64,000 nucleotides of DNA from Candidatus Omnitrophota bacterium (lineage in GTDB: Bacteria > Omnitrophota > Gorgyraeia > Duberdicusellales > 4484-171), in NCBI GenBank assembly GCA_043823745.1, contig JBDRAN010000002.1, positions 6,296-70,295 of the forward strand. The letters are read 5' to 3'. Every line of letters begins with the position of its first letter. Positions within the stretch are counted from its first letter, which is position 1. The notes beneath the pieces were generated by a model, which searched no databases, was not told the DNA's origin, and saw only the letters and a program-made list of their open reading frames with translations. Below, one piece after another: positions 22,922 to 50,114 of the stretch. The position numbers were made by a program, and so were the translations under genes.

Positions 22922-25900
22922 ATGGCTCACAGCGAGTTTGTCCACCTCCATGTCCACACCCAATACAGCCTCTTAGACGGCGCCTGTATCCTCGAGAGAC
23001 TCATCGAGAAGGCGGCAAAGTTTAAGCTTCCGGCTTTGGCGATTACCGACCACGGCAATATTTACGGCGCGATAAAATTTTATAAGCTCTGCATGGATAA
23101 AGGGGTAAAACCCATTATCGGGTGTGAAGCCTATATTGCACCAGGCTCGCGCCTTAAAAAAGAATATAAGCCCAACGAGAAGACGAATCATCACCTTATC
23201 CTGCTCGCCAAGGACGAAGAGGGGTACCACAATTTAGTGCGCCTGGTTTCGCTCGGCCATCTTGACGGTTTCTACTATCGTCCGCGTATCGATAAAGAAA
23301 TACTCACCCAGTATAGTAAGGGGCTCATCGGCTTAAGCGCGTGCTTAAAGGGCGAGGTGGCCTCAGCTATTGTCGCCGGAAGGATTAATGACGCCTATAA
23401 AATAGCTGATGAATATTTGAATATTTTCGGCCGCGGGAATTTCTATCTTGAGGTGATGGACAACGGCCTGCCCGAGCAGCATCGGGTTAACCAGTGTTTA
23501 GTTGCGATGTCTAAGGACCTGGGTATACCGATCGTATGCACCAATGATGTGCATTATCTTGAGCAAGATGAATCGTTCGCGCAGGAGGTGCTCCTGGGAA
23601 TTCAGACACAGACGACGCTCGATGACCCTAATCGTTTTAAGTTCAACAGTAACACGTTTTATTTTAGAAGCCCCGAAGAGATGCAGACGATCTTCAAAGA
23701 CATTCCGGGCGCAAGCCGTAATACGCTTGAAGTAACCCAGAAATGTAATGTAGTCATGGATTTTACAAAACTGCACCTACCGCATTTTGCCATACCCGGA
23801 GGCGAGAGCGAGGAGAGTTTCTTGCGCCGGCTTGTGTTTGAGAATGTTGCCAAGCGTTATCCGGCCGTGGGTGCTGAGGTTACGCAACGGCTTGAATATG
23901 AGCTTGGGGTGATTTCGAAAACGGGTTTTTCGAGTTACTTCATCATTGTGTGGGATCTGATTAAATTTGCCAAGGAAAATAATATTCCGGTTGGGCCAGG
24001 CCGAGGCAGCGCGGCCGGAAGTATCGTGAGTTATATTCTGGGAATTACCGATATCGACCCGCTTCGTTACGATTTACTTTTTGAGCGATTCTTGAATCCC
24101 GAACGTATCAGCATGCCTGATATCGATATCGATTTCTGTTACGAACGCCGGTCGCGCGTTCTTGAGTACGTCGGCAAGAAGTATGGTAAGGATAATGTAG
24201 CGCAAATTATTACGTTTGGAACGATGCTTGCCCGCGCGGTGGTGCGGGATACCGGTCGTGTGATGGGCTTTAGCTACACCGATGTCGATAAGATCGCAAA
24301 GATGATACCGCAGGTTCCCGGCCACCAGATCACCTTAAAAGAGGCGGTTGCTACCAATCCCGATCTTGAAGCAATTTATAATAGCGACGATAACATAAAG
24401 CGTCTTATCGATGTCGCGTCAAAACTTGAGGGCCTTTCCCGTCATGCGTCAACGCATGCGGCAGGCGTGGTTATATCAGATACGCCGCTTATTGAGCGTA
24501 TCCCCCTTATACGCGGTTCGGAAGGGGAAGTGGTGACCGGTTTCGATATGGAGTCTCTTGAGAAGACAGGCCTTCTGAAAATGGACTTTTTAGGACTTAA
24601 AACGTTAACGGTTATCGATGAAACGGTAAAGATTGTGAAACGTACCCATGGCACCATGATCGATATCCATGCGTTACCGTTCGATGATAAGAAAACGTTC
24701 CAGCTTCTCGGCGCCGGTGACACGATTGGGGTGTTCCAGCTTGAAAGCAGGGGGATGCGGGATATTTTAAACAAATTGATACCGACCCAATTTGAGGATT
24801 TGATCGCGGTGCTCGCCCTGTATCGGCCGGGACCATTAGGCAGCGGCATGGTCGATGATTTTATTGACCGCAAGAACGGAAAAAAAGGGGTTACGTATAC
24901 CCATCCACGACTTGAACCGATACTTAAAGAAACCTACGGTATTATTCTGTATCAGGAACAGACGATGCAGATTGTTTCACATCTTGCGGGTTTCAGTCTA
25001 TCCCGCGCCGATCTCCTGCGTAAAGCTATCGGTAAGAAAATTCCCGAGATAATGGAAGAGCAGCGCAACCTGTTTGTGCACGGCTGCGCTAAGAATGCTA
25101 TTTCAGCAAAGATCGCGAATCAGATCTTTGATTTAATTGATTATTTCTCGGGGTATGGATTTAATAAATGCGTTACGGGCGACACTAAAGTAATCGATGC
25201 ACAGAGTGGAGGGTTTATCACGCTGCAGGAGCTTTATGAAAATAGATCGATTGATTTTACTTTTGGGTTCAATAAAGATTTTAAAATCGAGAAACTACGT
25301 ATCATGGATGTGGTAGCAAATGGAGTAAAGTCTGTATATGCAGTAGCGACTTCGTTAGGTAAGGAAATAGAAGCTACCGCAAATCACCCTTTCCTGACCA
25401 TACATGGCTGGAAAAAATTAGAGGATCTTAAAAGTGGAGAACGAATTGCTTTGCCTCGCGTGTTCCCTTCCGTAGGCAAGGAGTCTATAGAGCCTTATAA
25501 ACTTATTGCGTTAGCGGGAATTATCTCTGAAGGCAATACGTGTCATCCTTCAGGAGTATATTTTTATGCTGCAAATCAACGTTTCTTTAATGATTTCGTA
25601 AAAAGCGTAAAATGTTTCCCGCATACGTTGCCCACTATTATAAGGCGTAGAAATATTTTCGAGGCATATTGCGGTACAGGCAGAGACGCTCGTTTTCTTA
25701 AAGGCAATATTCCCTGGAATAAGAGATGTGGTGTTAGTTGCGCAGAAGAAGTAATGATCCGTTCGGGTTTCCGGGTGTGGCTGGAAGAATTGGATCTGAT
25801 AGGGAAAAAAGCTGATGAAAAATTTATACCCGGTTTTATATTTCGACTCGATAATGAGTCATTGAAGTTATTTGTGGGGCGCCTATGGTCTGGAGATGGT

Positions 25901-27682
25901 TTTATTTTTAGCAAACAGAATACGTTGCCTTTTTATGCTTCGTCTTCACATAAGATAGCGCTTTCATTACATGACCTTTTGCTGCGCTTTGGAATCATAA
26001 GTAAGATTTATCAAAAGAAATTTAAATATCATTATAAAGGGGAAATGGATATTAAAAAAGGCTATGTGCTTATGGTGCATGGCGGAGTGAACATTGACAA
26101 TTTTATAGCGCACATTTGTCCGTATATTGTTGGTAGAGAGAAGGCGATAGTGCATCTGAAAGAATACTACAGAAAGGTTTCAAAGAATAAAGAAAGTAAA
26201 GACACTATTCCTCAAGAGATAAAATTTACAGTGCAGAGGCTTAAGGAAGAAAAAGGAATTTCCTGGAGACGTTTGCAGGGGGAATGCGGCCTCTCGATGA
26301 GAGAGTTTGTGGGAGGTGTCCACAAATATAAAAAAGGATTCAGAAGAAGCACTATTAAGAAGTTAGGAATATTTTTTGGTTCTGATGAACTTCTTTCTGC
26401 CGCGTCTTCTGAGGTGTATTGGGATGCTATCACTTCGATAAAATATGCCGGCCCTAAGCCCACGTATGATTTACAGATAGAGAAATATCATAATTTCATT
26501 GCTAATGGCATAGTGGTGCATAATTCACATTCAACCGCGTACGCGCTTATCTCCTATCAGACCGCGTATCTAAAAGCAAATTTTGGTGCTGAGTTTATGG
26601 CAGCGCTTTTAACCAGCGAACGAAATAATACGGATAAGATCCGTGAATATGTGAATGAAGCAGGCCGTATGGGTATCAAGGTGCTTCCGCCGGATATCAA
26701 TACCAGTTTTGCTAACTTTACCGTTACTGATGACGGTAATATCCGGTTTGGATTGCTCGCGATTAAAAATGTCGGTGGGGCTGCACTTACGAGTATTATT
26801 GAGGTGCGTAAAGCCGCAAAATTTGGCGGTATTTTTGATTTTTGCGAGCGCGTGGATTCACGTACGGTAAACAAAAAAGTAATCGAAAGTCTCATTAAAT
26901 CAGGAGCAATGGATACGTTTGGTCTTCGCCGCGCGCAGATGGCGGCTATTCTTGATGGGGTCTTAAGCCGCGGGGCCGGGAAAAAGGATGCTTCTCAGCT
27001 TATGTTATTCTCTGCGCCAAAAAAAGAAGTAGTTCCCGACGTGGCGGAGTGGCCGCTTGCCCAAATTCTTAATTTTGAAAAAACCCTTCTGGGTATGTAT
27101 ATCACCAGCCACCCTTTACATGCGTACGGGACGCTTGTTAAACATATCGCGCGTGAAGAAATTGCTGCTCTCTATGAAGGTGAACGGGCCGGCGAGGTGA
27201 TTGTGTGCGGGGTGCTTGAGAAGGTTAAGGTCATTACGACCCGCAAGGGTAATGACCGGATGGCGATCGTAAAGATTGAGGATGATACTGCGGGTCTTGA
27301 CGTATTTGTATTTCCCCGTCTTTTTGAAGAGTGCAATTCTTTTTTAAAAGAAAAAGCCGTCGTGCTGCTCGTGGGCAAGCTTGAGTCCAAGGAGAAAGTT
27401 CCCAAGATTCTTGCTTCCAAGGTTATCCTTATGGAAAACATCGCTGCAAGCATAAAACAGGTTAACATTACCATCGAGAAGAACAAATTCCCGCTCGATA
27501 AGCTGCGCGGTATTTTCGTAAAAAGCAGAGGTACGATCCCCGTTGTCTTTACCCTCAAAAACTCAAAGATGGAAGGCATTAAGATCAAAACAGCCAATAA
27601 TTTTTTCCTTAACCCCAGCGATGATGTGCTCAAGGAGCTCGATGCGCTCATCGGGCAGGAAAACCTATCACTTACGCTTTAA
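22922..27682 (+). CDS. dnaE: DNA polymerase III alpha subunit interrupted by an in-frame intein
   Basis: PHP domain (HLHVHTQYSLLDG) and polymerase core. The conserved GYGFNK/SHSTAYAL motif is split by a 452-aa insertion. The extein alone is about 1134 aa. Confidence 0.9.
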   Translation: MAHSEFVHLHVHTQYSLLDGACILERLIEKAAKFKLPALAITDHGNIYGAIKFYKLCMDKGVKPIIGCEAYIAPGSRLKKEYKPNEKTNHHLILLAKDEEGYHNLVRLVSLGHLDGFYYRPRIDKEILTQYSKGLIGLSACLKGEVASAIVAGRINDAYKIADEYLNIFGRGNFYLEVMDNGLPEQHRVNQCLVAMSKDLGIPIVCTNDVHYLEQDESFAQEVLLGIQTQTTLDDPNRFKFNSNTFYFRSPEEMQTIFKDIPGASRNTLEVTQKCNVVMDFTKLHLPHFAIPGGESEESFLRRLVFENVAKRYPAVGAEVTQRLEYELGVISKTGFSSYFIIVWDLIKFAKENNIPVGPGRGSAAGSIVSYILGITDIDPLRYDLLFERFLNPERISMPDIDIDFCYERRSRVLEYVGKKYGKDNVAQIITFGTMLARAVVRDTGRVMGFSYTDVDKIAKMIPQVPGHQITLKEAVATNPDLEAIYNSDDNIKRLIDVASKLEGLSRHASTHAAGVVISDTPLIERIPLIRGSEGEVVTGFDMESLEKTGLLKMDFLGLKTLTVIDETVKIVKRTHGTMIDIHALPFDDKKTFQLLGAGDTIGVFQLESRGMRDILNKLIPTQFEDLIAVLALYRPGPLGSGMVDDFIDRKNGKKGVTYTHPRLEPILKETYGIILYQEQTMQIVSHLAGFSLSRADLLRKAIGKKIPEIMEEQRNLFVHGCAKNAISAKIANQIFDLIDYFSGYGFNKCVTGDTKVIDAQSGGFITLQELYENRSIDFTFGFNKDFKIEKLRIMDVVANGVKSVYAVATSLGKEIEATANHPFLTIHGWKKLEDLKSGERIALPRVFPSVGKESIEPYKLIALAGIISEGNTCHPSGVYFYAANQRFFNDFVKSVKCFPHTLPTIIRRRNIFEAYCGTGRDARFLKGNIPWNKRCGVSCAEEVMIRSGFRVWLEELDLIGKKADEKFIPGFIFRLDNESLKLFVGRLWSGDGFIFSKQNTLPFYASSSHKIALSLHDLLLRFGIISKIYQKKFKYHYKGEMDIKKGYVLMVHGGVNIDNFIAHICPYIVGREKAIVHLKEYYRKVSKNKESKDTIPQEIKFTVQRLKEEKGISWRRLQGECGLSMREFVGGVHKYKKGFRRSTIKKLGIFFGSDELLSAASSEVYWDAITSIKYAGPKPTYDLQIEKYHNFIANGIVVHNSHSTAYALISYQTAYLKANFGAEFMAALLTSERNNTDKIREYVNEAGRMGIKVLPPDINTSFANFTVTDDGNIRFGLLAIKNVGGAALTSIIEVRKAAKFGGIFDFCERVDSRTVNKKVIESLIKSGAMDTFGLRRAQMAAILDGVLSRGAGKKDASQLMLFSAPKKEVVPDVAEWPLAQILNFEKTLLGMYITSHPLHAYGTLVKHIAREEIAALYEGERAGEVIVCGVLEKVKVITTRKGNDRMAIVKIEDDTAGLDVFVFPRLFEECNSFLKEKAVVLLVGKLESKEKVPKILASKVILMENIAASIKQVNITIEKNKFPLDKLRGIFVKSRGTIPVVFTLKNSKMEGIKIKTANNFFLNPSDDVLKELDALIGQENLSLTL
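25169..26524 (+). mobile_element. Intein with a LAGLIDADG homing-endonuclease domain inserted in DnaE (Cys1 ... His-Asn, followed by Ser+1)
   Basis: Block A CVTGDTKV directly after GFNK. A TxxH block B (ATANHPF). LAGLIDADG-like motifs LAGIISEGN and LWSGDGFIF. Terminal VVHN followed by SHS, which restores the DnaE motif. 1356 nt, in frame. Confidence 0.85.
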
Positions 27683-27816: not shown

Positions 27817-27910
27817 GGAAAAAAGCGAAAAACTCATAATTTCATGATATAATTCATAAATGGGTTTATCCGGCCTCATAAACGCAATAATCAAAACATT
27901 CATCATAAAA
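27817..27910 (+). repeat. Direct repeat copy A (about 94 bp): duplicate of the AAR-like gene's promoter plus first 17 codons
   Basis: About 93% identical to 30903-30997. Encodes MGLSGLINAIIKTFIIK then diverges to a stop after 29 aa. Confidence 0.85.
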
Positions 27911-28075
27911 CATTTAAGTCTGAAAAACCTCTCGTTAACATTAGCCGCTTAACGCATTTGCCTTTTTGTTCTAGCCCGACAAAATAGCATTCTTTTGGCT
28001 GATTTTTCTGATATAATTACGTAGGTATAATCCACTGCGGGGCATAATGCCTCTAAGCCACGGCATAAGCAAAAT

Positions 28076-29164
28076 ATGGAAAGAAAAAAAACTATTCTTT
28101 TGACCGGCGCTACTGGTCTTTTGGGTTCGTATTTATTGAAACTTTTTCTCGAAGAAGGCCATAAAGTTTATGCCCTCGCAAGAAGCAAAGATCATATTAA
28201 TGCAACCAGCAGGGTTATAAATTCCTTACGATTGTGGGATGAAACTATCTCTCCATCAAGCTATGCAGGAAAATTGATCGTAGTAGATGGTGATATTACA
28301 TCTTCTGACTTCAAAATTGAAACAAAAGAGATCATTGCACTTTTTCGATCGGAAGTTGAAATGATTTTTCATTGCGCAGCCTTAACGCTTTTTCGAGCCC
28401 CCCTAGAGATAATGCGAAAAATAAATGTAGAAGGTACTAAGAATATTTTAGATTTTTCTTTGACTTGCCTGCGGCTAAAAAATATAAATTATATAAGTAC
28501 AGCTTTTGTCGCGGGCAACAAAAATGGAATCGATTTTGACGAAAATATGTTGGAGTTGGGCCAGGGTTTTTATAATACCTACGAACAAACAAAATATGAA
28601 GTAGAAATATTGCTTAAAGATTACCAAAAAAAAGGCCTGATAATTTCTATTTTTCGTCCCAGCGTAGTAATGGGTGATTCTAAAGAGGGAAAGACTAATA
28701 ATTTCCATCTTTTTTATGAACCAACTCGTTTTTTTTCCCAAGGATTCTTTCCCGCGTTTCCTATGAATTTAGATTGTTCGTTGAACCTTATAAATATAGA
28801 TATCGCCGCTAAAGCAATTTTTATTCTAAGCGATATGGAAAAATCTGACGTTTATCATATCGTTTCCCCGGAAGATACTAATATGCATTTTTTTGCTAAA
28901 CTCGCCTCTTCTTATTTCAATTTCGAAATGCCGGAATTTATTCCTGAAGAGAAATTTGACTTCAGTGCCTGGACTGATGGGCAAAAATTATTAGGCGGAC
29001 CTTTCGTTCCTTATTGTAATTATAAGACGAAATTTGTATCACATAAAACACAACAAATTATGAGCCAATATAATTTTATATATCCTCAAATCAACGAGAG
29101 TAATCTTACTAAAATATTTGAATACTGCGATAAAGTTGGTTTTATAAAAAGGAAAAGACTATAA
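28076..29164 (+). CDS. Fatty acyl-CoA/thioester reductase-like SDR (NAD_binding_4 / male-sterility-type reductase domain)
   Basis: ILLTGATGLLGSYLL...YALAR...VVDGDIT...IFHCAA...NVEGT pattern typical of thioester-reductase domains. 362 aa. AT-rich island. Confidence 0.65.
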   Translation: MERKKTILLTGATGLLGSYLLKLFLEEGHKVYALARSKDHINATSRVINSLRLWDETISPSSYAGKLIVVDGDITSSDFKIETKEIIALFRSEVEMIFHCAALTLFRAPLEIMRKINVEGTKNILDFSLTCLRLKNINYISTAFVAGNKNGIDFDENMLELGQGFYNTYEQTKYEVEILLKDYQKKGLIISIFRPSVVMGDSKEGKTNNFHLFYEPTRFFSQGFFPAFPMNLDCSLNLINIDIAAKAIFILSDMEKSDVYHIVSPEDTNMHFFAKLASSYFNFEMPEFIPEEKFDFSAWTDGQKLLGGPFVPYCNYKTKFVSHKTQQIMSQYNFIYPQINESNLTKIFEYCDKVGFIKRKRL

Positions 29165-29171
29165 ATCAAAC

Positions 29172-30803
29172 ATGAATATCTTTTTTATACTTAGCCTGCT
29201 TATTGCAATCACTAGTTTAGGATTATCTTTTTTTCTGCTGTCTAAAACATGGCAAAAACCGGTCAATAGAGTTTTTGGCCTTTTTGCTATCAGTATAGGA
29301 GTTTGGGGTTTAGGCGGGAGTGTCATATCTATTATCCCTAAAGCTAATTATCAATTAGCTCAGTTTTGGTGGCAAATTGCTTACACCGGTATAATTCTTA
29401 TACCTGTACTTTATGCACGGTTTATTTTTGAATTCCTCGATCTGAAGAGGAAATTTTTTATTCGTACCATGTATCTAATAGGATTAATTTTCTTATTGCT
29501 AAATTGGTTCGATGGATCAAGATTTTTCTTAGGTGATTTAAAATTTATGTTTGGTCAATTCTATTGGCATGACTGGATTGAATCAAAAAGTATAAGTTAT
29601 ATTATTTTTTATCTAAGTTTTTATTGGTGTCTTCTGAGTTATCCTTTCTTGCTTTTATTATTAAATTTCAAAAAAACAACGGGATTGCGACGCGAACAAA
29701 CGAAATATATTATTTTCGGATCTATATTTGGCTGGTTGGGGGGCGAATCAAATTTTCTGCCCGATTTTGGTATCAACATTTACCCCTTTCTCAACTTACT
29801 TACGCCTTTTTACACATTGATTGTTGCCTACGCCATCCTCAAGCATCGCCTCATGGACATAGACATCGTTATTAAGAGAACAACCGTTTACTCAATTCTG
29901 GTCTCCTTAATTACTATTCTCTATTTTACAATTATTTACATCACAGAATTACTCTTTCGACGGTTTGTTGGCTATAAATCAATACCCATGGCATTGGGTT
30001 TTATTTCTCTTTTTACTTTGATATTCCAACCTCTGAAGAATTTTATCCAGTCCTTTATAGACAAATATTTCTTCAAAGGCTCGCAAGCTACCCTAGCAGA
30101 AGAACTCCAAAAAGCGCAGGAAGAGCTAAAAAGGGCTGAACGTCTAAAGGCAGTAGGCACTCTTGCTGCCGGTATGGCGCACGAGATAAAAAATCCGTTA
30201 ACAGGGATTATGACATTTACGGAGTATCTGCCTACCAAGTATACGGACCCTGCTTTTATAGAAAAATTCCATAAAATAGTTTCTACGGAAGTAAATAAGA
30301 TAAACTCAATTGTCGAACAGCTCTTAGATTTCTCTAAACCAAAACCACTGAAATTACAAGAAGCTAATATACACAATATCATAGATCAGACACTTTCTCT
30401 GCTTAATAATGACATCATTAAGTACAAAATCAATGTGAGCAGAAATTACGACAACACCTTTCCTATGCTGCATATAGACCCTAACCAAATACAACAGGTA
30501 TTTTGTAATTTTTTCCTTAATGCCATTGACGCTTTAAAAGAAGGGGGTGAATTGACCATTGCTACCCAACAGCTACCAGATAATGCTGAAATCACTATCA
30601 GCGACACCGGCCAAGGTATCCCTAAGAAAGATTTAGAACATATCTTTGACCCATTTTATACTACAAAAGAGACAGGGACAGGCTTGGGGATGTCGATTAT
30701 TTACGGAATAATTAAAGAACATAAAGGCATTATTGGTGTAGAAAGTGAGGTAAATAAAGGAACGACGTTTACGATAAAATTACCTTATTGTATCAATTTT
30801 TGA
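29172..30803 (+). CDS. Polytopic membrane sensor histidine kinase (HK1)
   Basis: N-terminal about 300 aa with at least 6 TM helices ending in YAILKHRLMDIDIV. HisKA H-box AAGMAHEIKNPL. HATPase_c (GTGLGMSII). Confidence 0.85.
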   Translation: MNIFFILSLLIAITSLGLSFFLLSKTWQKPVNRVFGLFAISIGVWGLGGSVISIIPKANYQLAQFWWQIAYTGIILIPVLYARFIFEFLDLKRKFFIRTMYLIGLIFLLLNWFDGSRFFLGDLKFMFGQFYWHDWIESKSISYIIFYLSFYWCLLSYPFLLLLLNFKKTTGLRREQTKYIIFGSIFGWLGGESNFLPDFGINIYPFLNLLTPFYTLIVAYAILKHRLMDIDIVIKRTTVYSILVSLITILYFTIIYITELLFRRFVGYKSIPMALGFISLFTLIFQPLKNFIQSFIDKYFFKGSQATLAEELQKAQEELKRAERLKAVGTLAAGMAHEIKNPLTGIMTFTEYLPTKYTDPAFIEKFHKIVSTEVNKINSIVEQLLDFSKPKPLKLQEANIHNIIDQTLSLLNNDIIKYKINVSRNYDNTFPMLHIDPNQIQQVFCNFFLNAIDALKEGGELTIATQQLPDNAEITISDTGQGIPKKDLEHIFDPFYTTKETGTGLGMSIIYGIIKEHKGIIGVESEVNKGTTFTIKLPYCINF

Positions 30804-30851
30804 TACAAGAGGTTAATTCTATTCCATACGTATACGTACAATCAATAAATG

Positions 30852-30886
30852 GCGATTCTACTAGAATCGCTCTTTGACTTTTTTGA
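30852..30886 (+). terminator. Possible intrinsic terminator after HK1
   Basis: GCGATTCTA-c-TAGAATCGC inverted repeat followed by TCTTTGACTTTTTT. Confidence 0.4.
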
Positions 30887-30902
30887 CACAGTGACGCAGA
30901 CG

Positions 30903-30997
30903 GGAAAAAAGCGAAAAACTCATAATTTCATGATATAATCAACAAAATGGGTTTATCCGGCCTCATAAACGCAATAATCAAAACATTCATCATAAAA
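30903..30997 (+). repeat. Direct repeat copy B (about 95 bp): native promoter and 5' end of the AAR-like gene
   Basis: GGGAAAAAAGCGAAAAACTCATAATTTCATGATATAAT...ATGGGTTTATCCGGCCTCATAAACGCAATAATCAAAACATTCATCATAAAA matches 27817-27910. Confidence 0.85.
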
Positions 30998-32095
30998 TTA
31001 TTGCCTCGGTTTATCCTTCGGAAATTAGGCTACAATCGAGGAATCGCTTTTATTGCTAATCTTCCTAATACGGCTTCCGTGCCTCTTTCCGTACCTTTCA
31101 GAAAGCTGGTAATCGCAATAATGCGGCAACTTTCGCCGGTTGTTGTTTCTCCCCTAGGTGGTTTTAAGAATAAAGATGGGGCGGAGGTCAAGGGGTGGGT
31201 AATCCTTTGTCTGCTCACTGCCGCCGAAATTCTAACGCATGCAGATTTCGCAAGAAAACGAGTCGTGCAGGCCGCTTGCTTGGCAGAACGCATGGGCGTG
31301 GATATTATAACATTAGGCGCTTTTACCTCGATTGTAACGCATGACGGTTTGGACTTAATAGGTAAAACAAAAGTTGGGATTACAACCGGCAATCCATACT
31401 CCGCAATCGTGGCAATTCAAAATATGCGAGAGGCTGCTCGGTTGGTAAATTTAGACATTATCAATGCAACGGTCGCAATCGTCGGTGCTGCTGGGTCTGT
31501 TGGATCAGGTTGTGCTCAGTTTCTGTTAGGAAAGGTAAAAAAGTTTTTGCTTATAGATTGGCAATATAATGCTTTGCGCGAGTTATATGATACGATTAAT
31601 CCAAAATCTACTAGTGTTGAAATGTTAAAAGATGTTCAGGGTATTGCTGCGGCTGATATTGTTATTCTTGTCACAAGTTCTGTCACCGGAATTATCGGAA
31701 AAGACTTATTAAAACCAGGCGCAATAGTAATAGACGGCGCAAATCCCCCCAATATTTCTAATGAAACGCTAAAATCAAGAAGTGATATTCTTGTGATTTC
31801 TTCCGCAATCGTAAAGGTGCCCGGTTTGCGTCATCCTTTTAATTTTAATCTGGGCTCAGGGGAAACATTCGGCTGTGTCGGTGAAGCTTTTGCTCTTGCC
31901 TGGACAAAGCATAAAGGTAATTATGCATTAGGTAAGGTTAGCGTACAACAGATGCAAGATATTGAAAGTATCGCCAGCGACGCAGGCTTTACCATCGCTC
32001 CGTTTCGTAATTCTCTTGGCTTAATTTCCAAAGAACAGATTGCTCATGTCCGTAACATAATACATTCTAATTATTTGAATACTGCGATAAAATAG
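30947..32095 (+). CDS. Acyl-ACP reductase (AAR)-family protein, homolog of the cyanobacterial alkane-pathway reductase
   Basis: Blocks ITLGAFTSIV, ITTGNPYSAIVAI, ATVAIVGAAGSVGSGCAQFL, IVIDGANPPN and FGCVGEAFALAW match AAR recalled from memory (ISALGGFTSII, FTTGNTHTAYV, ATVAVVGATGDIGSAV, LIDGGYPKN, FACFAEAML). Apparently leaderless (TGaTATAAT 7 nt before the ATG). Confidence 0.65.
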   Translation: MGLSGLINAIIKTFIIKLLPRFILRKLGYNRGIAFIANLPNTASVPLSVPFRKLVIAIMRQLSPVVVSPLGGFKNKDGAEVKGWVILCLLTAAEILTHADFARKRVVQAACLAERMGVDIITLGAFTSIVTHDGLDLIGKTKVGITTGNPYSAIVAIQNMREAARLVNLDIINATVAIVGAAGSVGSGCAQFLLGKVKKFLLIDWQYNALRELYDTINPKSTSVEMLKDVQGIAAADIVILVTSSVTGIIGKDLLKPGAIVIDGANPPNISNETLKSRSDILVISSAIVKVPGLRHPFNFNLGSGETFGCVGEAFALAWTKHKGNYALGKVSVQQMQDIESIASDAGFTIAPFRNSLGLISKEQIAHVRNIIHSNYLNTAIK

Positions 32096-32117
32096 GCTTT
32101 ATAACCAAAAATAAAAC

Positions 32118-33194
32118 ATGCCTGCAAGAAAAAAACAATCAATAAACACAATAGTAGAAAAGATCGGTGAGAGTAAAAAACGAAAAATAATAATCGATTT
32201 TTTCTCTAAAGATATAGAAAATTTTGACCAGAGCATAAAGAATCTAGAGAAAAAAACACCCCTCAAGTCTTTCCCTAATAACAAAATTTGCTTATATGTT
32301 TTCCGACTTATGAATAAGTTATTAGATAAGGCACGAGTAATTGAAGAAATAATTAGCGATAAAACGCTTTTAAAAGCGATAAAGCAAGCGTTTAGAGAAC
32401 AAATAGAATATTTTCTTGGCAAGAGCACGTTAATGCGTTGGGGGTATTATAAACCCTCCGGGCATCCCGGCGACTATGAATTAATAGAAGCATTTTATGA
32501 TAATATGCCTCTTTCCAAAGGCATAGGTTTTTGTGGTGACAAATATATTCTTCAAGACGGCTATGTAGAAGCAGTTAAAATCAGAAAAGATTTGATGCTG
32601 CAAAAACTGGCTTCTTTTATAAAGGATAATACATCAAAACATCTAAATATTATGAATCTTGGGTGCGGATCAAGCAGGGAAATACGAGAGTTGTTTTCTA
32701 CTGCTCATGTCTTAATTCCTCGCGACAAAAGAATAACATTTACCTTAATTGATTGGGACGAAAAAGCTCTAGAGTTTTCAAAGCAATCGTTATTAAAATA
32801 TCGAAGTAACGATGCTATTGAATTCATATTTTTTAAGATAAACGTGCTCGATTTATATAAAAATTCTTCTCAATATACAAAAGCCCTGATGAAGCAGGAT
32901 TTGATTTATAGTATTGGTTTGGCAGATTATATGCCAAATTTAGTTTTTGGCGAAATAATAAAATTTTGTTTTAGTTTATTAAAAAAGAAAGGTACTCTAA
33001 CTATAGCGCACAAAAATATTAAAGTGCATAAAAGTGTTGCTTCCGATTGGGCATGCGATTGGCATTTTTATCCTCGCAGTATCGAGGATGTAATTAAAAT
33101 TATTGACGAAAGTTTTGAAGACCATAAACGTAAAGTAGAAACTGTCAGTGAAAAAACAAAGCATATTTTTTTCGTGGATATAAGTAAACCATGA
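32118..33194 (+). CDS. Class I SAM-dependent methyltransferase with an about 170-aa N-terminal extension
   Basis: Motif I LNIMNLGCGSSREI, acidic motif II (TLIDWDE), and a later motif (GTLTIAH). 358 aa. Confidence 0.6.
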   Translation: MPARKKQSINTIVEKIGESKKRKIIIDFFSKDIENFDQSIKNLEKKTPLKSFPNNKICLYVFRLMNKLLDKARVIEEIISDKTLLKAIKQAFREQIEYFLGKSTLMRWGYYKPSGHPGDYELIEAFYDNMPLSKGIGFCGDKYILQDGYVEAVKIRKDLMLQKLASFIKDNTSKHLNIMNLGCGSSREIRELFSTAHVLIPRDKRITFTLIDWDEKALEFSKQSLLKYRSNDAIEFIFFKINVLDLYKNSSQYTKALMKQDLIYSIGLADYMPNLVFGEIIKFCFSLLKKKGTLTIAHKNIKVHKSVASDWACDWHFYPRSIEDVIKIIDESFEDHKRKVETVSEKTKHIFFVDISKP

Positions 33195-35260
33195 AGTCAA
33201 ATTTTTATTTTGTGTCACATTTAGCCGCAGCATTACTTGTTCTGTTTTTTTCATTCTTTGTTTTTATAAAAAATAAAAAATCAAAAGTTAATCTTAGTTT
33301 TTCAATATTTGGATCAACAATTTTTAGCTGGCTTTTATTTTCTTCTTTTGCAGCTATTTCCGCCGAAAAAGAGATGAATCTTTTTTGGTTCAAAATGAGT
33401 TATATGGGTATTATTCTTATACCGCATACTTTCTTGTATTTTGTATCGTGCGTAACAGAAAAAAAGAATACTTTTATTATATTTTTCAGTTGGCTCTATG
33501 CCTTTAGTTTCATTCTATTGTTATGGTTTACTAATTTATTTATAGTCGGTATTTATGAATATCCTTGGGGGGTTTATCCTCGTGCTTTTCCAATCTCACA
33601 CCTTCTATTTTTATCATCATTTATTATTTTGTTTGTATGCGCAATCCGTGCTTTAATCTCGAGAGTGATTGAAAAAGCTAATGTTACTACAGAAAAATTA
33701 AGAGCCACTTATATACTTATGGGAACTTTATTCGGAGTTTGCGGAAGTGTAGATTTTTTAGCTAACTATGGGATAAACTTTTATCCTTCTGGCTTCATTT
33801 TTATGATACTTTATCCTTCGATTCTAAGTTATGCCATCCTCAAATACCGCTTAATGGATATTCGCGTTGCTTTAACCCGCGCGGGAATTTTCATTGCTGT
33901 TTATACGTTTGTTTTAGGCATCCCGCTTTTAATTGGTTTCAAAACAGATAAATGGCTCTGGGCGATGCTTTTAATGGGCGTTCTTTCAAGCGTAGGGCCG
34001 TTTGTGTATAGCTATTTACGCCAACAGATTGAAAATGCGATCTTTAAGGAACAACAAAGATATCAGCAAGCCATCAAAGAATTAGCTAAACGGATGGTAC
34101 AGATAAGAGACATGGCCACTTTGTCTAAGACGATTATTTCCGATGTGTTCAAAGTCGCGCAACCGGAATTTATTGTCCTGTACATATTTTCCAAAGATAG
34201 TAAATCATACGTACTCCAGGACAACAGTATAAAAAATAATTCTACGTTTGAGACAGACATTTCAGCGGATTCAATACTCGTAGAGAATTTATCCCGTAAC
34301 AAACGGCCGGTGATTCTTGAGAGCGGTTTTTCCTTAGATTTACCGCTGGAAACGCTTATTGTGCCTTTCTTCGCGGAAAGCAGCCTCTATGGCATAATGT
34401 TTATCGGTCCTAAGCCGAAAAAGGCTGTTTATATAGAATCAGATTTCATTGCTTTTGATATTCTTTCTTCTCAGGCGTCCTTAGCCATCGAAAATTGTCT
34501 CTTCTGGCAGGAGGAAAAAACTCGAATAGCAAAAGAAGAGCAGATAAAACGAATGCAGGCCATGGATCATTTCTCTGCGGCCATGGCTCATGAAATAGAC
34601 AATCCCATCACTGCAATAGCCGGGCAATTGCGTTTGATAGAGCTTATCCTTAGCGAAAAATTTAAAGACTTGATTCCTGCCCAAGACTTAGCTGAATTAA
34701 CTACTTATGCCGGTACAACGGTAACTAATCTTGGAAGAATATCGAAAATGATAAAGGCAGTAAGGGAATTTTCCAGGCAAGATACGGGCGAATTTTCGCT
34801 TTTATCAGTGGAGGAGGCTGTCGATTTTACTTTAGCGATAGTTGGGCCGCAGGTCAAATACAAAAAAGTATCTTTCACCAAAGAAATAGAAGATAACCTT
34901 TCTGTACGCGGCAACAGGATTTATCTGGCGGAAGCTTTGATGAACTTAATCGTCAATAGTATGCATGCGGTTCAAGATAAACCGGAGTGGCAGGGAAAAA
35001 TAGATTTAAAAGTTAAAAAAGCCGGTAGAGAAAAATGTCTTATTGAAATACGCGATAATGGTTATGGTATAAAAAAACATCTTCTTGAAAATATTTTCTT
35101 AGATTTTGTCAGCACTAAGGCTTCTTCTGAAGGAACGGGGATGGGGTTAGCTAGAGTAAGAAAAATAATCCAAATGCACAGCGGCAAAGTATGGGCGCAA
35201 AGTGAAGGCGCCGGTAAAGGGGCAACTTTTTTTATCGAACTTCCCTTGGCAGAGAAATAG
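33191..35260 (+). CDS. Polytopic membrane sensor histidine kinase (HK2), paralog of HK1 with an extra cytoplasmic (GAF/PAS-like) region
   Basis: The N-terminal TM domain ends in YAILKYRLMDIRVAL, the same motif as HK1. H-box SAAMAHEIDNPI. HATPase_c GTGMGLARV. 689 aa. 4-nt overlap with the methyltransferase. Confidence 0.85.
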   Translation: MKSNFYFVSHLAAALLVLFFSFFVFIKNKKSKVNLSFSIFGSTIFSWLLFSSFAAISAEKEMNLFWFKMSYMGIILIPHTFLYFVSCVTEKKNTFIIFFSWLYAFSFILLLWFTNLFIVGIYEYPWGVYPRAFPISHLLFLSSFIILFVCAIRALISRVIEKANVTTEKLRATYILMGTLFGVCGSVDFLANYGINFYPSGFIFMILYPSILSYAILKYRLMDIRVALTRAGIFIAVYTFVLGIPLLIGFKTDKWLWAMLLMGVLSSVGPFVYSYLRQQIENAIFKEQQRYQQAIKELAKRMVQIRDMATLSKTIISDVFKVAQPEFIVLYIFSKDSKSYVLQDNSIKNNSTFETDISADSILVENLSRNKRPVILESGFSLDLPLETLIVPFFAESSLYGIMFIGPKPKKAVYIESDFIAFDILSSQASLAIENCLFWQEEKTRIAKEEQIKRMQAMDHFSAAMAHEIDNPITAIAGQLRLIELILSEKFKDLIPAQDLAELTTYAGTTVTNLGRISKMIKAVREFSRQDTGEFSLLSVEEAVDFTLAIVGPQVKYKKVSFTKEIEDNLSVRGNRIYLAEALMNLIVNSMHAVQDKPEWQGKIDLKVKKAGREKCLIEIRDNGYGIKKHLLENIFLDFVSTKASSEGTGMGLARVRKIIQMHSGKVWAQSEGAGKGATFFIELPLAEK

Positions 35261-35275
35261 AAAGGAGGATTAATT

Positions 35276-35662
35276 ATGGAGAAGCGCAAGGTTCTTATAG
35301 TGGAGGATGAACAGGACATTTGCCAGTTTATGAAAAGGATGCTTGAATTAAAAGGATGCGAAGTTTTTACCGCTCTCACCGCGCAAGAAGGCTGGGAAAT
35401 TTTTCAAAGAGAAAAGCCCCAAGCTTGCTCTATCGATATTCTTCTTTCCCATTCAGAATTTGACGGCACAGAACTTTTAAGAAGAATAAGGCAAATAGAT
35501 AAAAACGTTTTGTGCGTAATGGTAACGCGTATCGATGACAAAAAAACTATGAATGAAGTGGAAGAACTAGGGATTGACGGAATTTTCATAAAACCTCCCG
35601 CGGCAGGAGAGCTGGATAATTTAATCGACCAGCTCGCGCATGGCAAAAGAAAGGAGGCATAA
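35276..35662 (+). CDS. Stand-alone response-regulator receiver domain (CheY-like)
   Basis: VLIVEDEQD acidic pocket, candidate phospho-Asp in SIDILLS, conserved Thr (CVMVT) and Lys (FIKP). 128 aa with no output domain. Confidence 0.75.
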   Translation: MEKRKVLIVEDEQDICQFMKRMLELKGCEVFTALTAQEGWEIFQREKPQACSIDILLSHSEFDGTELLRRIRQIDKNVLCVMVTRIDDKKTMNEVEELGIDGIFIKPPAAGELDNLIDQLAHGKRKEA

Positions 35663-35664
35663 CG

Positions 35665-36000
35665 ATGGCAAATCCATTACCAAATGAAGCTGAACTTTAT
35701 GCAAGAATGGAAAAAGAGCATATCAACGTGCATCCGCTTGTATGGGAATTCATTAATCATCATGTGAGAAATGATCTTAACTGGATTACGATGTGCATAG
35801 GTTTGCATCGTTCAACGCCGCGCTGGATACTGCGGCTTGCTTCTTCTCTTATCAGCCTCTTATACAAAATCTCCCGTCAACCGGGAGAGCCGCCCCCTGA
35901 TCTTTTGAGCGCTTTTAACGGCACTATTGAGAGAGTAAAAAATATCGACAGATTTTTAAAAAATTTGCGAGAGAAAACCTGTCCTGCTTACGATCTTTAA
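35665..36000 (+). CDS. Hypothetical protein, translationally coupled to the receiver
   Basis: 111-aa ORF starting 3 nt after the receiver stop. No recognisable motif. Confidence 0.4.
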   Translation: MANPLPNEAELYARMEKEHINVHPLVWEFINHHVRNDLNWITMCIGLHRSTPRWILRLASSLISLLYKISRQPGEPPPDLLSAFNGTIERVKNIDRFLKNLREKTCPAYDL

Positions 36001-47625: not shown

Positions 47626-47924
47626 AGAAGCTAGGAAGCTCGTGGCTTACAGGGAAGATGGCAGATTGCAGATGACAGATGGCAGATAGAGGGACGAGGG
47701 ATGAGAGACGCAGATTGCCGCGAAATCAACGCAGATTTACGCAGATAAAAAAGAGATTTTGTATCCTCGTTACTTACAATCTTTGCTTTAATTTTAAAAC
47801 TTGACCTATTTTTGTGGAGGGATAGTATAATCATTAATGAGTGATTATATGAGGCTAAAATTTAGGTAAATTTATAGGGTAACTCTTAAAGGGATTGCCT
47901 TTTTTGACCAAGGATACGAGAAAA

Positions 47925-48500
47925 ATGGACGAAGGAAAATTATTTGTAAATCTTCACAATATTCTTAAAGGATATAAAAACAAATGTAGATTTTTAACCG
48001 AGCTAAAAACTTCATTATTTACTAAAAAAACATCTTATCAGCTTGATTTTGATATTATAATCATTCAGTTGCAAAACAGGGTAGAAGACATTTTTGACCG
48101 TATTCTAAGAACTTATACAAGACCTAAGCAAAAAGAGGAATATTTATATAACGATGAGATAATGAAAGATACTGCAGCAAAATTTACCCCCGAGGAGGTT
48201 AGGAACTTGATTATTTTTAATCTTGGTTTTAGTGAGAAAAAGAATTTGATTTTCAAGCTTTTTAAGGTATCTAAATCGACGAAAACGATAATTGATAAAC
48301 TTAATGAAATGAGAAATGCAATTGCCCATAGATATAGCGAAGACGATAAAAGATTTATTTATAAAGAAAAGAACGTTTTACATGATCCAAACACACTTAT
48401 TAATTTTTTTAGAGACAATTTCGAGGGTATTATTGAGATTCTTGAAATCGAAACTAAGCTACTAGATGCCATAGATAAAGCCGAAGGTGAACTTGGTTGA
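47925..48500 (+). CDS. Hypothetical protein with an HEPN-type Rx4H motif (possible RNase, toxin or Abi)
   Basis: C-terminal MRNAIAHRY fits the HEPN R-x(4-6)-H motif. Predicted all-alpha. AT-rich island. The TTG start at 47895 is also possible. Confidence 0.4.
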   Translation: MDEGKLFVNLHNILKGYKNKCRFLTELKTSLFTKKTSYQLDFDIIIIQLQNRVEDIFDRILRTYTRPKQKEEYLYNDEIMKDTAAKFTPEEVRNLIIFNLGFSEKKNLIFKLFKVSKSTKTIIDKLNEMRNAIAHRYSEDDKRFIYKEKNVLHDPNTLINFFRDNFEGIIEILEIETKLLDAIDKAEGELG

Positions 48501-49042: not shown

Positions 49043-49076
49043 GGAAGCAAGAACGTTGAAACAAAAGGAGTGAAAA

Positions 49077-49565: not shown

Positions 49566-49593
49566 AGGTAAATATCAAAAACAATCAAAGCAA

Positions 49594-49959: not shown

Positions 49960-50114
49960 AATCTTTAGCCGCAAGGCGAGGATTTTTTTTGTTTATGGGT
50001 ATTATAAAAACAAAGTCAGTATTCGGATAGGTTTGAAATGCTCTGGGTAGCTGGTAGAAAGGCAAAAGTTTTAGCATGATGCGAAGGCTAAATGGCGATG
50101 GGTAGGAACGAAGA

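Follow-up and report, generated by a model that had tools for sequence, protein, structure and literature searches.

AAR, PigE and KecF-type domains convert ACP or CoA thioesters to aldehydes by way of an acyl-cysteine intermediate (PMC9743570, PMC8341465, PMC6498172), and in AAR, GluTR and PigE a tunnel leads the aldehyde on to a bound partner (PMC8341465, PMC9743570). In cyanobacteria, the gene for the acyl-ACP reductase AAR (S. elongatus orf1594; 6JZQ/6JZU/6JZY) adjoins the gene of its presumed product-accepting partner, the di-iron oxygenase ADO. The domains of the PigE (4PPM), KecF and TamH/PtTAmH type, which free an acyl or polyketide chain from its ACP in aldehyde form and are associated with small dedicated KS/ACP sets, are instead part of fusion proteins whose class III aminotransferase accepts the aldehyde. 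Enzymes that use acyl thioesters also adjoin sensor kinases. The Ralstonia phcBSRQ genes combine a methyltransferase thought to act on 3-hydroxyacyl-ACP with a membrane kinase and receivers without DNA-binding domains (PMC8578825, PMC11960443, PMC4549310). In the alpha-hydroxyketone systems CqsA/CqsS (Vibrio) and LqsA/LqsS (Legionella), and in the DSF system RpfF/RpfC, an acyl-thioester-using synthase adjoins a polytopic kinase sensing a hydrophobic, acyl-derived signal. In des-desKR of Bacillus subtilis, the gene of a lipid-modifying enzyme neighbours that of a kinase with a purely transmembrane sensor, and des is transcribed separately, as a target of DesR.

We analysed a 64,000-nucleotide stretch of DNA from an Omnitrophota MAG (the window), which carries a compound cassette: a thioester reductase (TR) and a kinase (HK1), then an AAR-like enzyme (hereafter the reductase), a methyltransferase (MT), a second kinase (HK2), a receiver and a 111-aa protein. 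The reductase, a homolog of AAR-fold acyl-thioester reductases, is encoded on the + strand at 30947..32095 by an uninterrupted ORF of 382 aa with an ATG start, exactly as a first-pass annotation of this DNA had reported. The GenBank gene model in the source MAG covers the last 267 residues only and is truncated by 115 codons; full-length homologs (97-98% coverage), conserved P20 and F35 and confidently modelled N-terminal helices support the 382-aa start. Between HK1 and the reductase gene lies a terminator-like hairpin (30851..30871, + strand; a 9-bp stem, then a T-rich tail), identified by its match to the consensus only. It is followed by a stretch that we call repeat A2 (30903..30997, + strand), comprising a promoter-like region and codons 1-17 of the gene, with an extended -10 element, TGATATAAT at 30931-30939. 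Since this -10 element ends 7 nt ahead of the ATG and no Shine-Dalgarno sequence was found upstream of the gene, the mRNA may be leaderless.

The first-pass annotation had described the protein as a homolog of cyanobacterial-type AAR, and the homology itself is significant. S. elongatus AAR (6jzq/6jzu) is matched with E 1e-16 over query residues 88-341 (phmmer, PDB sequences) and the NCBIfam model TIGR04058 (EC 1.2.1.80) with E 4e-27, and an AlphaFold2 model of the reductase (pLDDT 94.8, pTM 0.93) shows the three-domain AAR fold, with AAR 6jzy_A as its best structural match (Foldseek, E 6e-21, TM 0.73/0.81). C310 (..ETFGCVGEAF..) aligns with the catalytic Cys294 of the S. elongatus enzyme (SeAAR; ..QMFACFAEAM..), in the shared GCxxE context, which bears out the expectation of a catalytic cysteine. 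C310, E313, G180/G183/G186, D204, P267 and N355 occur without exception in the distinct clade members compared (61/61), a degree of conservation that argues for a working enzyme. The expected NADPH motif was recovered in part: the glycines of GxxGxxG, as in AAR (G180-x-x-G183-x-x-G186), are all present, whereas the cofactor may be another. SeAAR has Thr/Arg at the position of D204, which follows the second Rossmann strand, and an Asp there would, as a general rule for Rossmann folds, speak for NADH over NADPH.

The qualifier 'cyanobacterial-type' has to be given up. The TIGR04058 score (95.4 bits) does not reach the equivalog cut-off of 449.7 bits, and the best HMM match belongs to the PigE group (NF053554, E 4e-39, profile positions 50-360; 134 bits against a cut-off of 850), with the PigE structure 4ppm_A matched at E 1e-18. 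Identity is 29-59% to clade members, 23-28% to SeAAR and 26-28% to PigE. In a neighbour-joining tree (311 columns, without bootstrap support and hence indicative only), the kinase-linked proteins form one clade that includes the reductase, with SeAAR and PigE apart. Clade members come from non-cyanobacterial hosts and, unlike cyanobacterial AAR, have an extra, clade-specific N-terminal helical segment (residues 1-32 in the reductase). Judged by these comparisons, the reductase is only distantly related to the enzyme that forms fatty aldehydes in cyanobacteria and belongs to a distinct, non-cyanobacterial clade. It is most likely an AAR-fold, cysteine-dependent and NAD(P)H-dependent acyl-thioester reductase, for which we infer an ACP-bound acyl chain as the probable substrate and an aldehyde as the released product. 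Unlike the PigE, KecF and TamH domains, it is a stand-alone protein, complete at 382 aa, with a kinase gene downstream, and no aminotransferase was found in the cassette or among the 37 window ORFs scanned.

That the protein is no thioester reductase at all seems improbable to us. It would then be an amino-acid or other dehydrogenase (COG5322 'predicted amino acid dehydrogenase') or carry out some other chemistry, such as that of the carmabin terminal amidation domain (TAD). The whole-chain match to AAR lies far above Leu and Trp dehydrogenases (TM 0.41 or less), the nucleophilic cysteine and the GCxxE motif common to AAR and PigE are invariant, and ACP and KS genes abut the reductase gene in several lineages. 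These observations outweigh, in our view, the JGI name 'predicted amino acid dehydrogenase' given to several homologs, the Pfam result (a Shikimate_DH-type Rossmann domain and nothing else) and the carmabin TAD structures, which come second among the structural matches with a TM of about 0.73.

The defining feature of the reductase clade is a tight coupling to a downstream histidine kinase, nearly always one whose sensor is a seven-helix membrane domain (HisKA_7TM). We examined 60 GTDB species-representative loci and found a kinase gene just downstream of the reductase gene in 56 of them. The kinase ORF starts -202 to +14 nt from the reductase stop in 52/60, overlap being frequent, and follows an insert of 0.46-1.5 kb in 4 further loci; of the four without a kinase, one ends with its contig and three are among the four most divergent matches. 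A HisKA_7TM domain is present in 82 of the 88 neighbouring kinase-like ORFs. The kinase-linked loci belong to Nitrospirota, Omnitrophota, Patescibacteria, Planctomycetia, Chlamydiota and Elusimicrobiota, and include the cultured Nitrospira moscoviensis (L029). In the window, reductase and kinase are co-oriented, HK2 following after a 1.1-kb methyltransferase insertion. We found no description of an AAR-histidine kinase pairing in the full-text literature, a search whose scope was papers readable without subscription. Across 67 distinct 7TM domains that we aligned, conservation is confined to W47 and a motif resembling DFLPxFGxxxYPFG. Rhodopsin-like Schiff-base binding of an aldehyde by a 7TM lysine was considered and dropped, no Lys or Cys being conserved in these domains.

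The lack of an ADO gene, which the first-pass annotation had singled out, can be read against this background. No ADO family was matched in 37 scanned of the 55 window ORFs of at least 90 aa, including all of those of 200-260 aa, each of the 37 having hits to different Pfam families or no hit at all, in agreement with the claim that no ADO partner lies nearby. The suggestion of another fate for the aldehyde holds if the product is an aldehyde. The absence is no anomaly, the conserved neighbour of this non-cyanobacterial clade being a kinase where that of cyanobacterial AAR is ADO. An alkane-pathway AAR of cyanobacterial type, its ADO encoded elsewhere in the genome or lost, would share the fold, the catalytic cysteine and the significant similarity; it is nonetheless scarcely credible in view of the score (95 bits against 449.7), a clade apart from SeAAR, the Omnitrophota host, the ADO result among the 37 ORFs and the kinase partner in 56/60 clade loci. 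Annotation of the clade proteins as alkane-pathway long-chain acyl-ACP reductases should be avoided.

Lipid-related genes recur around the reductase-kinase pair. In L011/L004, L015, L018, L072 and L046 the reductase gene directly adjoins a dedicated set of KS-KR-ACP-DH-KS genes, and in L052 an ACP gene, neighbours that would fit an ACP-bound substrate; the 64-kb window itself showed neither ACP nor KS genes. FadL/TodX outer-membrane channels for hydrophobic compounds adjoin the pair in 25 loci, and PlsC-type acyltransferases neighbour it in 13 Patescibacteria loci. Patescibacteria are generally thought to be without de novo fatty-acid synthesis, which makes acyl-ACP doubtful as the substrate there. 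Together with the methyltransferases, these neighbours would suit regulated lipid remodelling on the des-desKR model, in which the reductase would supply fatty aldehydes or alcohols to the lipids of the membrane or envelope and the 7TM kinase would sense the membrane state and control the pathway, an explanation that we take seriously and think rather unlikely. The lipids might be ether lipids, waxes or modified acyl chains, and the enzyme would be an output of the kinase and not the source of its ligand, again a rather unlikely arrangement. Polytopic kinases without extracytoplasmic domains, such as DesK, are typical membrane-state sensors, and the sensor here is likewise purely transmembrane. 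The spacing speaks against remodelling: in 52 loci the two genes overlap or are separated by no more than 15 nt, which indicates that reductase and kinase are co-transcribed rather than being regulator and target. Moreover, the pair is kept even without other adjacent lipid genes.

The overlap of reductase stop and kinase start also suggests that translation of the two is coupled, a trait common among proteins that assemble into a complex, and brings in another alternative. The AAR-like protein may be a candidate cytoplasmic subunit of the kinase, reporting on the acyl-ACP pool or on the NAD(P)H/NAD(P)+ balance, which we regard as unlikely. The acyl-enzyme intermediate could serve for this, or the product could be delivered straight into the 7TM domain; the cell would then sense its own lipid-synthesis flux and not other cells, a doubtful route in our estimate. 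The kinase gene does occupy the genomic place of the aldehyde-accepting partner of AAR, GluTR and PigE, and the clade-specific N-terminal helical extension with its conserved P20 and F35 would fit a subunit of this kind. PilZ domains, fused N-terminally to Nitrospira reductases and to some MT homologs, suggest allosteric control; they also suggest c-di-GMP gating of signal production, and GGDEF or HD-type proteins lie near the L014, L050 and L077 loci. The adjoining FadL channels count against such a co-sensor, suggesting traffic of hydrophobic molecules across the envelope.

The remaining genes of the cassette show that the position ahead of the kinase can be filled in other ways. TR (28076..29164, + strand, 362 aa) is a stand-alone SDR-type thioester reductase (Pfam NAD_binding_4, E 2e-51; TIGR01746, E 7e-40) whose fold is unrelated to that of AAR; its gene has a GC content of 0.337. 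The first-pass annotation did not include this second thioester reductase. HK1 (29172..30803, + strand, 543 aa), with HisKA_7TM (PF16927, E 1e-14), HisKA (PF00512) and HATPase_c (PF02518) domains, starts 7 nt past the TR stop, and HK1-type kinases also occur near the reductase module in L011, L072 and L050. TR homologs lie close to a HisKA_7TM kinase in 3/3 loci examined. They are directly upstream of it in L078 (ACP-TR-kinase-RR-RR) and L076 (TR-kinase-RR, with a 4-nt overlap) and two genes away in L077 (KR-KS-KS-ACP-DH-..-TR-..-kinase-RR), where the kinase closes a larger biosynthetic cluster, an arrangement that would suit lipid remodelling. A metagenome scan with the TR protein returned two distant matches and no more.

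MT (32118..33194, + strand, 358 aa) is a class I SAM-dependent methyltransferase (Pfam Methyltransf_31) of PhcB-like type with an N-terminal helical domain (AlphaFold2 pLDDT 93.6; gene GC 0.318). It is missing from the closest orthologous loci, L001 and L071, which marks it as an insertion particular to this lineage that separates the reductase from its kinase. That kinase is HK2 (33191..35260, + strand, 689 aa; HisKA_7TM, GAF, HisKA and HATPase_c in Pfam), which overlaps the MT stop by 4 nt and is the ortholog of the kinases abutting the reductase in L001 (E 4e-184) and L071 (3e-231; both phmmer). The first-pass annotation had rightly noted the methyltransferase and the two sensor kinases as neighbours; its treatment of them as incidental does not survive the finding that the kinase is the conserved partner of the clade. 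Next come a receiver-only response regulator (35276..35662, + strand, 128 aa; Response_reg in Pfam, E 6e-20, without an output domain), kept after the kinase in L001, L071 and L076, and a conserved 111-aa protein (35665..36000, + strand) with no Pfam or NCBIfam match and with orthologs in the same position in L001 (E 3e-34) and L071 (5e-51). No adjacent response regulator is found at most Nitrospira and Patescibacteria loci. In the three loci sampled for MT contexts, as many as for TR, MT homologs precede the kinase: the order is ACP-MT-kinase (HisKA_7TM) with 4-nt overlaps in L079/L080, and PilZ-MT, then kinase, in L081.

Three enzyme classes, the AAR-like reductase, the SDR-type TR and the PhcB-like MT, are therefore interchangeable in the slot before HisKA_7TM kinases, as is best seen with HK2-type kinases, which follow an AAR-like gene in L001 (4e-184), a TR gene in L076 (3e-185) and an MT gene in L079 (9e-111). 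TR and MT are unrelated to the AAR-like enzyme and would also act on acyl-ACP. The window retains a physical trace of exchange in the form of reciprocal relics. Upstream of the TR gene, repeat A1 (27817..27910, + strand) is a relic of the AAR-like promoter-like region and first 17 codons; it matches 30903-30997 with 96% identity over 95 nt, 53 nt of these at 100%, and the similarity stops abruptly on both sides. Repeat B2 (32069..32104, + strand) is a relic of the TR gene 3' end, identical to 29112-29147 at 32/36 nt, and, read in another frame, gives the AAR-like gene its last 9 codons and stop. In TR, 29112-29147 encodes the family-conserved ..FEYCDKVGFIK, whereas AAR-like orthologs end otherwise (..KLSDKN). 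At the nucleotide level, neither repeat A nor repeat B relics were found in other loci, and the sequence ahead of the TR gene in L076 contains no relic of an AAR-like 5' end. As for mobile-element boundaries of the low-GC segment, there is no tRNA gene in the window and there are no flanking repeats except A and B.

This interchange bears on both alternatives. Interchange among three unrelated enzymes that would each release a neutral small lipid from ACP is easier to reconcile with a diffusible product than with a structural lipid, and a signalling role is known for the PhcB-type methyltransferase family, both points against lipid remodelling. For a kinase subunit, replacement by an unrelated SDR reductase or a methyltransferase is hard to square with a specific docking interface.

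The closest resemblance is to Phc of Ralstonia. The window order MT-HK2-receiver-only regulator is the phc order by published descriptions (PMC8578825, PMC11960443), and the logic appears to be shared: an acyl-ACP enzyme yielding a neutral lipid (in Phc, a methyl 3-hydroxy-acylate), a polytopic kinase, and receivers without a DNA-binding domain. The link of MT to PhcB runs through names and a weak match: two MT homologs (40-42% identical) are named by JGI 3-hydroxypalmitic acid methyl ester biosynthesis protein, the PhcB name, and MT matches the methyltransferase of a Paraburkholderia phcBSRQ-like MT-HK-RR-RR operon with E 3e-5 (tblastn) and 9e-14 (phmmer). No model named PhcB or PhcS exists in NCBIfam or Pfam, and a PDB fold search with MT returned generic small-molecule methyltransferases (best 3OCJ, TM 0.52/0.61). 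The systems differ in that the sensor of the Paraburkholderia PhcS-like kinase has no detectable relation to the HisKA_7TM profile, the ancestral partner of HK2 is an AAR-fold reductase and not a methyltransferase, and the phyla are different. The likeness to the CqsA, LqsA and RpfF systems is one of logic only, their enzymes (a PLP-dependent acyltransferase or a crotonase) and sensors being unrelated. From des-desKR, the cassette differs in its overlapping genes and interchangeable enzyme class.

A linkage seen in over 50 species and several bacterial phyla points to a cassette for a lipid signal and its receptor, and not to an alkane pathway minus a partner. The reductase would turn acyl-ACP into a neutral, membrane-soluble lipid, which the polytopic kinase would detect, then phosphorylating the receiver-only regulator; by analogy with PhcB/PhcS, CqsA/CqsS or RpfF/RpfC, the first would make the signal and the second receive it. 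FadL channels beside the pair, PilZ fusions and nearby GGDEF or HD-type proteins add further ties to signalling and lipid traffic. Gene adjacency fits such a synthase-receptor pair and a kinase-controlled enzyme equally well; the kinase may sense the reductase product, and the signal may act from cell to cell or solely inside its producer. Taking chemistry and signalling role together, we put at about even the prospects that this is a Phc-like cassette, its acyl-ACP-releasing enzyme producing a neutral lipid signal for the adjacent kinase to sense.

A broader proposal, which we offer tentatively, is that HisKA_7TM kinases are the receptors of a widespread class of lipid signalling, the synthase being whichever acyl-ACP-releasing enzyme lies upstream, swapped by recombination, and that fatty or polyketide aldehydes form a new class of autoinducer, handed to the kinase or exchanged via FadL. 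Aldehydes are reactive and unusual as signals. If this broader proposal is true, such systems would be found in nitrifying Nitrospira, ultra-small Patescibacteria, Omnitrophota, Planctomycetia and Chlamydiota. The strict pairing provides one testable hypothesis for the function of the non-cyanobacterial AAR branch and another for the ligand of HisKA_7TM domains, and the substitution of an SDR-type TR or a PhcB-like MT for the AAR-like enzyme yields a further one; the presence of the system in cultured Nitrospira moscoviensis makes experiments feasible. If reductase and kinase are indeed synthase and receptor, they would represent a new family of lipid signalling, whether between cells or self-sensing, in lineages whose communication is little known, among them comammox and nitrite-oxidising Nitrospira, episymbiotic Patescibacteria and Omnitrophota.

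[quoted passage not shown] Pfam detects only a Shikimate_DH-type Rossmann domain (E 5e-7), and the NCBIfam matches are to the N-terminal part of the PigE model NF053554 (E 4e-39, 134 bits against a cut-off of 850) and to TIGR04058, long-chain acyl-ACP reductase (E 4e-27, 95.4 bits, cut-off 449.7). The top matches among PDB sequences are PigE (4PPM, E 1e-18) and Synechococcus elongatus AAR (6JZQ/6JZU, E 1e-16, residues 88-341); in this alignment C310 (ETFGC310VGE) falls on the catalytic Cys294 of AAR. The dinucleotide motif reads G180-x-x-G183-x-x-G186. An AlphaFold2 model built from 48 homologs is confident (pLDDT 94.8, pTM 0.93), and the structures nearest to it are AAR chains (6jzy_A, E 6e-21, TM 0.73/0.81, 23% identity), followed by the carmabin pathway's AAR-like terminal amidation domain (TM about 0.73), with amino-acid, shikimate and glutamyl-tRNA dehydrogenases/reductases at a TM of 0.41 or less. 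Thioester-to-aldehyde chemistry is likely, and some other chemistry improbable. GenBank model ABH865_00295 (267 aa) begins at Met116 and covers only the last 267 residues; the 115 residues absent from it are conserved in homologs and fold confidently in the model. The longer 382-aa start is supported by full-length homologs, the conserved P20 and F35, and the confident predicted N-terminal helices.

The first-pass annotation had called this gene a cyanobacterial-type AAR homolog without an aldehyde-deformylating oxygenase (ADO) partner. Its claim of homology holds, since the similarity is significant and the catalytic cysteine is in place, so that neither an insignificant alignment nor a lost cysteine counts against it. 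The label "cyanobacterial-type" does not hold: the TIGR04058 score is far under the equivalog cut-off, identity to S. elongatus AAR is 23-28%, and the protein, from an Omnitrophota MAG, groups with its own relatives in a neighbour-joining tree calculated without support values, apart from S. elongatus AAR, PigE and PigE-like sequences. The closest relatives are from Omnitrophota (59-62% identity); more distant ones include Nitrospira proteins of about 580 aa, extended at the N-terminus by PilZ, as well as proteins from Chlamydiota, Patescibacteria and other groups. The superfamily is of modest size (2383 representatives at E ≤1e-3, 242 at ≤1e-30). As had been claimed, no ADO was found nearby by Pfam scan of 37 of the window's 55 ORFs of at least 90 aa, every 200-260-aa ORF included; all 37 matched non-ADO families or no family, and the other 18 appear housekeeping-like by sequence inspection. 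An alkane-pathway reading, to which the AAR homology had pointed, is exceedingly improbable, and the absent ADO is not the point of interest.

A large sensor kinase lies immediately 3' of the reductase in all five divergent homolog contexts, with the N-terminal seven-helix sensor domain HisKA_7TM (PF16927) recorded in four. Scanning one genome per GTDB species gave 60 loci, whose six-frame ORFs we searched with the window's proteins (L-numbers, here and below, designate loci from this and the other context searches). In 52 loci a same-strand kinase ORF starts between -202 and +14 nt relative to the reductase stop, and in four others (L025, L041, L046, L052) the kinase follows an insert of 0.46-1.5 kb. 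Four loci are without a kinase: L051, where the sequence ends 685 nt past the reductase gene, and L068, L069 (Janthinobacterium) and L070 (Bacillota), which belong to the four most divergent hits, none of them better than E 1e-30. Of 88 neighbouring kinase-like ORFs, 82 are hit by an iterated profile built on the 7TM region; the six unmatched ORFs include three true kinases, one of them after the reductase in a Chlamydiota locus. Of the linked loci, 31 are from Nitrospirota, 14 from Patescibacteria, six from Omnitrophota and two from Planctomycetia; the others belong to Chlamydiota, Elusimicrobiota and one MAG labelled Clostridia. We consider functional coupling of enzyme and kinase very probable; no description of the pairing was found in the literature outside subscription journals. 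All 61 distinct kinase-linked proteins share C310, E313, the three glycines, D204, P267 and N355, and so appear from their sequences to be working enzymes, not degenerate regulatory domains; the invariant Asp204 suggests that the cofactor may be NADH.

The reductase is not the only enzyme found in this position. A stand-alone SDR thioester reductase (TR, 28076-29164, +; NAD_binding_4, E 2e-51) is followed after 7 nt by a second 7TM kinase, HK1 (29172-30803, +). More than 180 TR homologs were found, nearly all from Omnitrophota where a source is named, and all three loci sampled have a HisKA_7TM kinase near TR, with TR directly upstream in two. The gene orders are ACP, TR, kinase, response regulator (RR), RR, ACP (L078); TR, kinase (4-nt overlap; HK2-type, E 3e-185), 128-aa RR (L076); and KR, KS, KS, ACP, DH, oxidase, TR, nitroreductase, oxidase, kinase, RR, HD protein (L077, Omnitrophota). 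In L077 a distant AAR-like gene (E 4e-10; 2-589) and the SDR reductase (6001-7119) flank the KR-KS-KS-ACP-DH set, and the 7TM kinase comes after two FAD oxidases and the nitroreductase; this cluster is a more complete biosynthetic form of the module. The window's methyltransferase (MT, 32118-33194, +) has 75 homologs, several with N-terminal PilZ domains; two of them (40-42% identical) were named by JGI [quoted passage not shown], which is the name used for the Ralstonia PhcB product. Among three MT loci sampled, the closest homolog (52%) belongs to ACP-MT-kinase units whose genes overlap by 4 nt (L079/L080; HK2-type kinase, E 9e-111), and L081 has a PilZ-MT fusion before a 7TM-GAF kinase. Depending on the genome, the gene before a kinase of this one family thus encodes an AAR-fold reductase, an SDR reductase or a methyltransferase, and each of the three also occurs immediately after an ACP gene. 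Each chemistry would free an acyl group from ACP in the form of a neutral lipid (aldehyde or methyl ester); the presumed substrate of PhcB is 3-hydroxyacyl-ACP (PMC4549310).

The neighbourhoods of the reductase-kinase pair contain further lipid genes. In Omnitrophota UBA6210 (L004-6/L011) and in L072 the reductase directly follows dedicated KS-KR-ACP-DH-KS genes; the upstream genes are DH-KS in L015 and KS-ACP in L018, KS-KS-ACP-DH come after the kinase and a regulator in L046, and in L052 an ACP gene separates the reductase from the kinase. In 25 loci the pair adjoins a FadL/TodX outer-membrane channel gene (PF03349, E 2e-66), which is divergent in 22 from Nitrospira and directly upstream in L013, L067 and probably L041, whose contig has just its truncated 3' end. 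In L013 a radical-SAM protein comes after the kinase, and in L041 one separates the pair. Links to c-di-GMP recur: PilZ is fused to the reductases of Nitrospira, L001 has a PilZ gene, L014 encodes GAF-GGDEF, and GAF-HD proteins occur in L050 and L077. The Nitrospira loci (L007, L016-L048) encode AAR-like proteins extended at the N-terminus by about 200 aa, a region for which several members carry a PilZ annotation; one locus, L029, is from the cultured N. moscoviensis (NZ_CP011801.1 1292873-1313991). Thirteen Patescibacteria loci have an upstream PlsC-type acyltransferase, and seven loci of this group have a class I methyltransferase (226-234 aa) after the kinase. Patescibacteria may be without acyl-ACP, which tells against a signal synthase with its receptor; that the enzyme instead remodels lipids under control of the kinase is rather unlikely.

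In the superfamily, the acyl group moves from ACP or CoA to the active-site cysteine and NAD(P)H reduces the thioester; the aldehyde exits by a hydrophobic tunnel, and AAR, GluTR and probably PigE pass it directly to a bound partner (PMC9743570, PMC8341465). We regard a metabolic co-sensor complex of enzyme and kinase as unlikely. As a signal synthase, the AAR-like protein would perform the same chemistry on a dedicated or housekeeping acyl-ACP, and its product, perhaps modified further by MT in the window genome, would be the ligand of the adjacent 7TM kinase, which would signal via the receiver-only protein. FadL channels beside the pair would let a hydrophobic signal across the outer membrane, and PilZ fusions would place synthesis under c-di-GMP control. 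This model of lipid-signal synthase and receptor kinase, built by analogy, may be right or wrong as a whole with about equal probability. One point against it is that the 7TM domain has no residue suggestive of aldehyde chemistry. The proposed system mirrors the gene order of Ralstonia phcBSRQ: methyltransferase, membrane kinase, and receiver proteins without DNA-binding domains (PMC8578825, PMC11960443). However, the link of MT to PhcB comes from third-party names and a weak match to a Paraburkholderia MT-HK-RR-RR operon, whose kinase sensor is not detectably HisKA_7TM. The phcBSRQ-like operon on the conjugative plasmid pPHS1_P of Paraburkholderia graminis (L083, NZ_CP024936.1 432595-436970) has a 468-aa methyltransferase, a 445-aa kinase and receiver proteins of 134 and 344 aa, adjoined by a cyclopropane-fatty-acyl-phospholipid synthase family gene.

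In the window, MT stands between the AAR-like gene and its kinase HK2 (33191-35260, +; 7TM-GAF-HisKA-HATPase), which is followed by the receiver-only RR (35276-35662, +). The closest orthologous loci, L071 (61%) and L001 (59%), consist of reductase, 683-aa kinase (HK2 orthologs, E 3e-231 and 4e-184), receiver (126-127 aa) and small protein (108-109 aa) without a methyltransferase, and MT is therefore a lineage-specific insertion into a conserved four-gene unit. A 111-aa protein without a family match (35665-36000, +) corresponds in position to the small protein that always follows the receiver in these cassettes, and may be the system's output or adaptor.

Two pairs of direct repeats link the reductase genes. 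Repeat A (30903-30997, 95 nt) spans an extended -10 that resembles a promoter (TGATATAAT) together with codons 1-17 of the AAR-like gene; its copy (27817-27910) lies upstream of TR's own promoter-like region, has sharp edges and is 96% identical, with 53 nt at 100%. Repeat B is a sharp-edged direct repeat of 33-36 nt (32/36 identical) between the TR 3' end (29112-29147) and 32069-32104. Within TR it codes for ..FEYCDKVGFIK, a motif conserved among TR homologs; the other copy, in another reading frame, gives the final nine codons and stop of the AAR-like gene, whose orthologs have different C-terminal ends. As reciprocal relics, the repeats indicate at the sequence level that the two genes recombined with, or replaced, each other here. 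A hairpin at 30851-30871 suggests, from consensus matches, two transcription units from near-identical promoter-like sequences. GC content in the seven-gene cassette (28000-36000) is 0.32-0.42, lowest in TR and MT, versus 0.45-0.51 in the housekeeping flanks, which fits stepwise horizontal acquisition; no tRNA gene or integrase was found near the cassette.

Elsewhere in the window, the DNA polymerase III alpha subunit gene (22922-27682, +; 1586 aa) contains an intein with a LAGLIDADG homing-endonuclease domain (residues about 766-1201; local GC 0.38-0.41), and a second low-GC patch (47895-50864 and 51955-52617; 0.34 at 48-50 kb) holds several small ORFs without a Pfam match, some with signal-peptide-like N-termini. 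A second kind of seven-helix receptor, a 7TM-7TMR_HD protein (40908-42263, +; PF07698 and an HD hydrolase domain), lies 5 kb downstream of the cassette.

A predicted acyl-ACP-releasing enzyme with a HisKA_7TM kinase is a conserved and apparently undescribed module, and the chances are roughly even that it belongs to a known type, the operons of lipid-signal synthase and receptor kinase. The module spans at least six phyla, its enzyme part is interchangeable, and the window has all three enzyme versions side by side.
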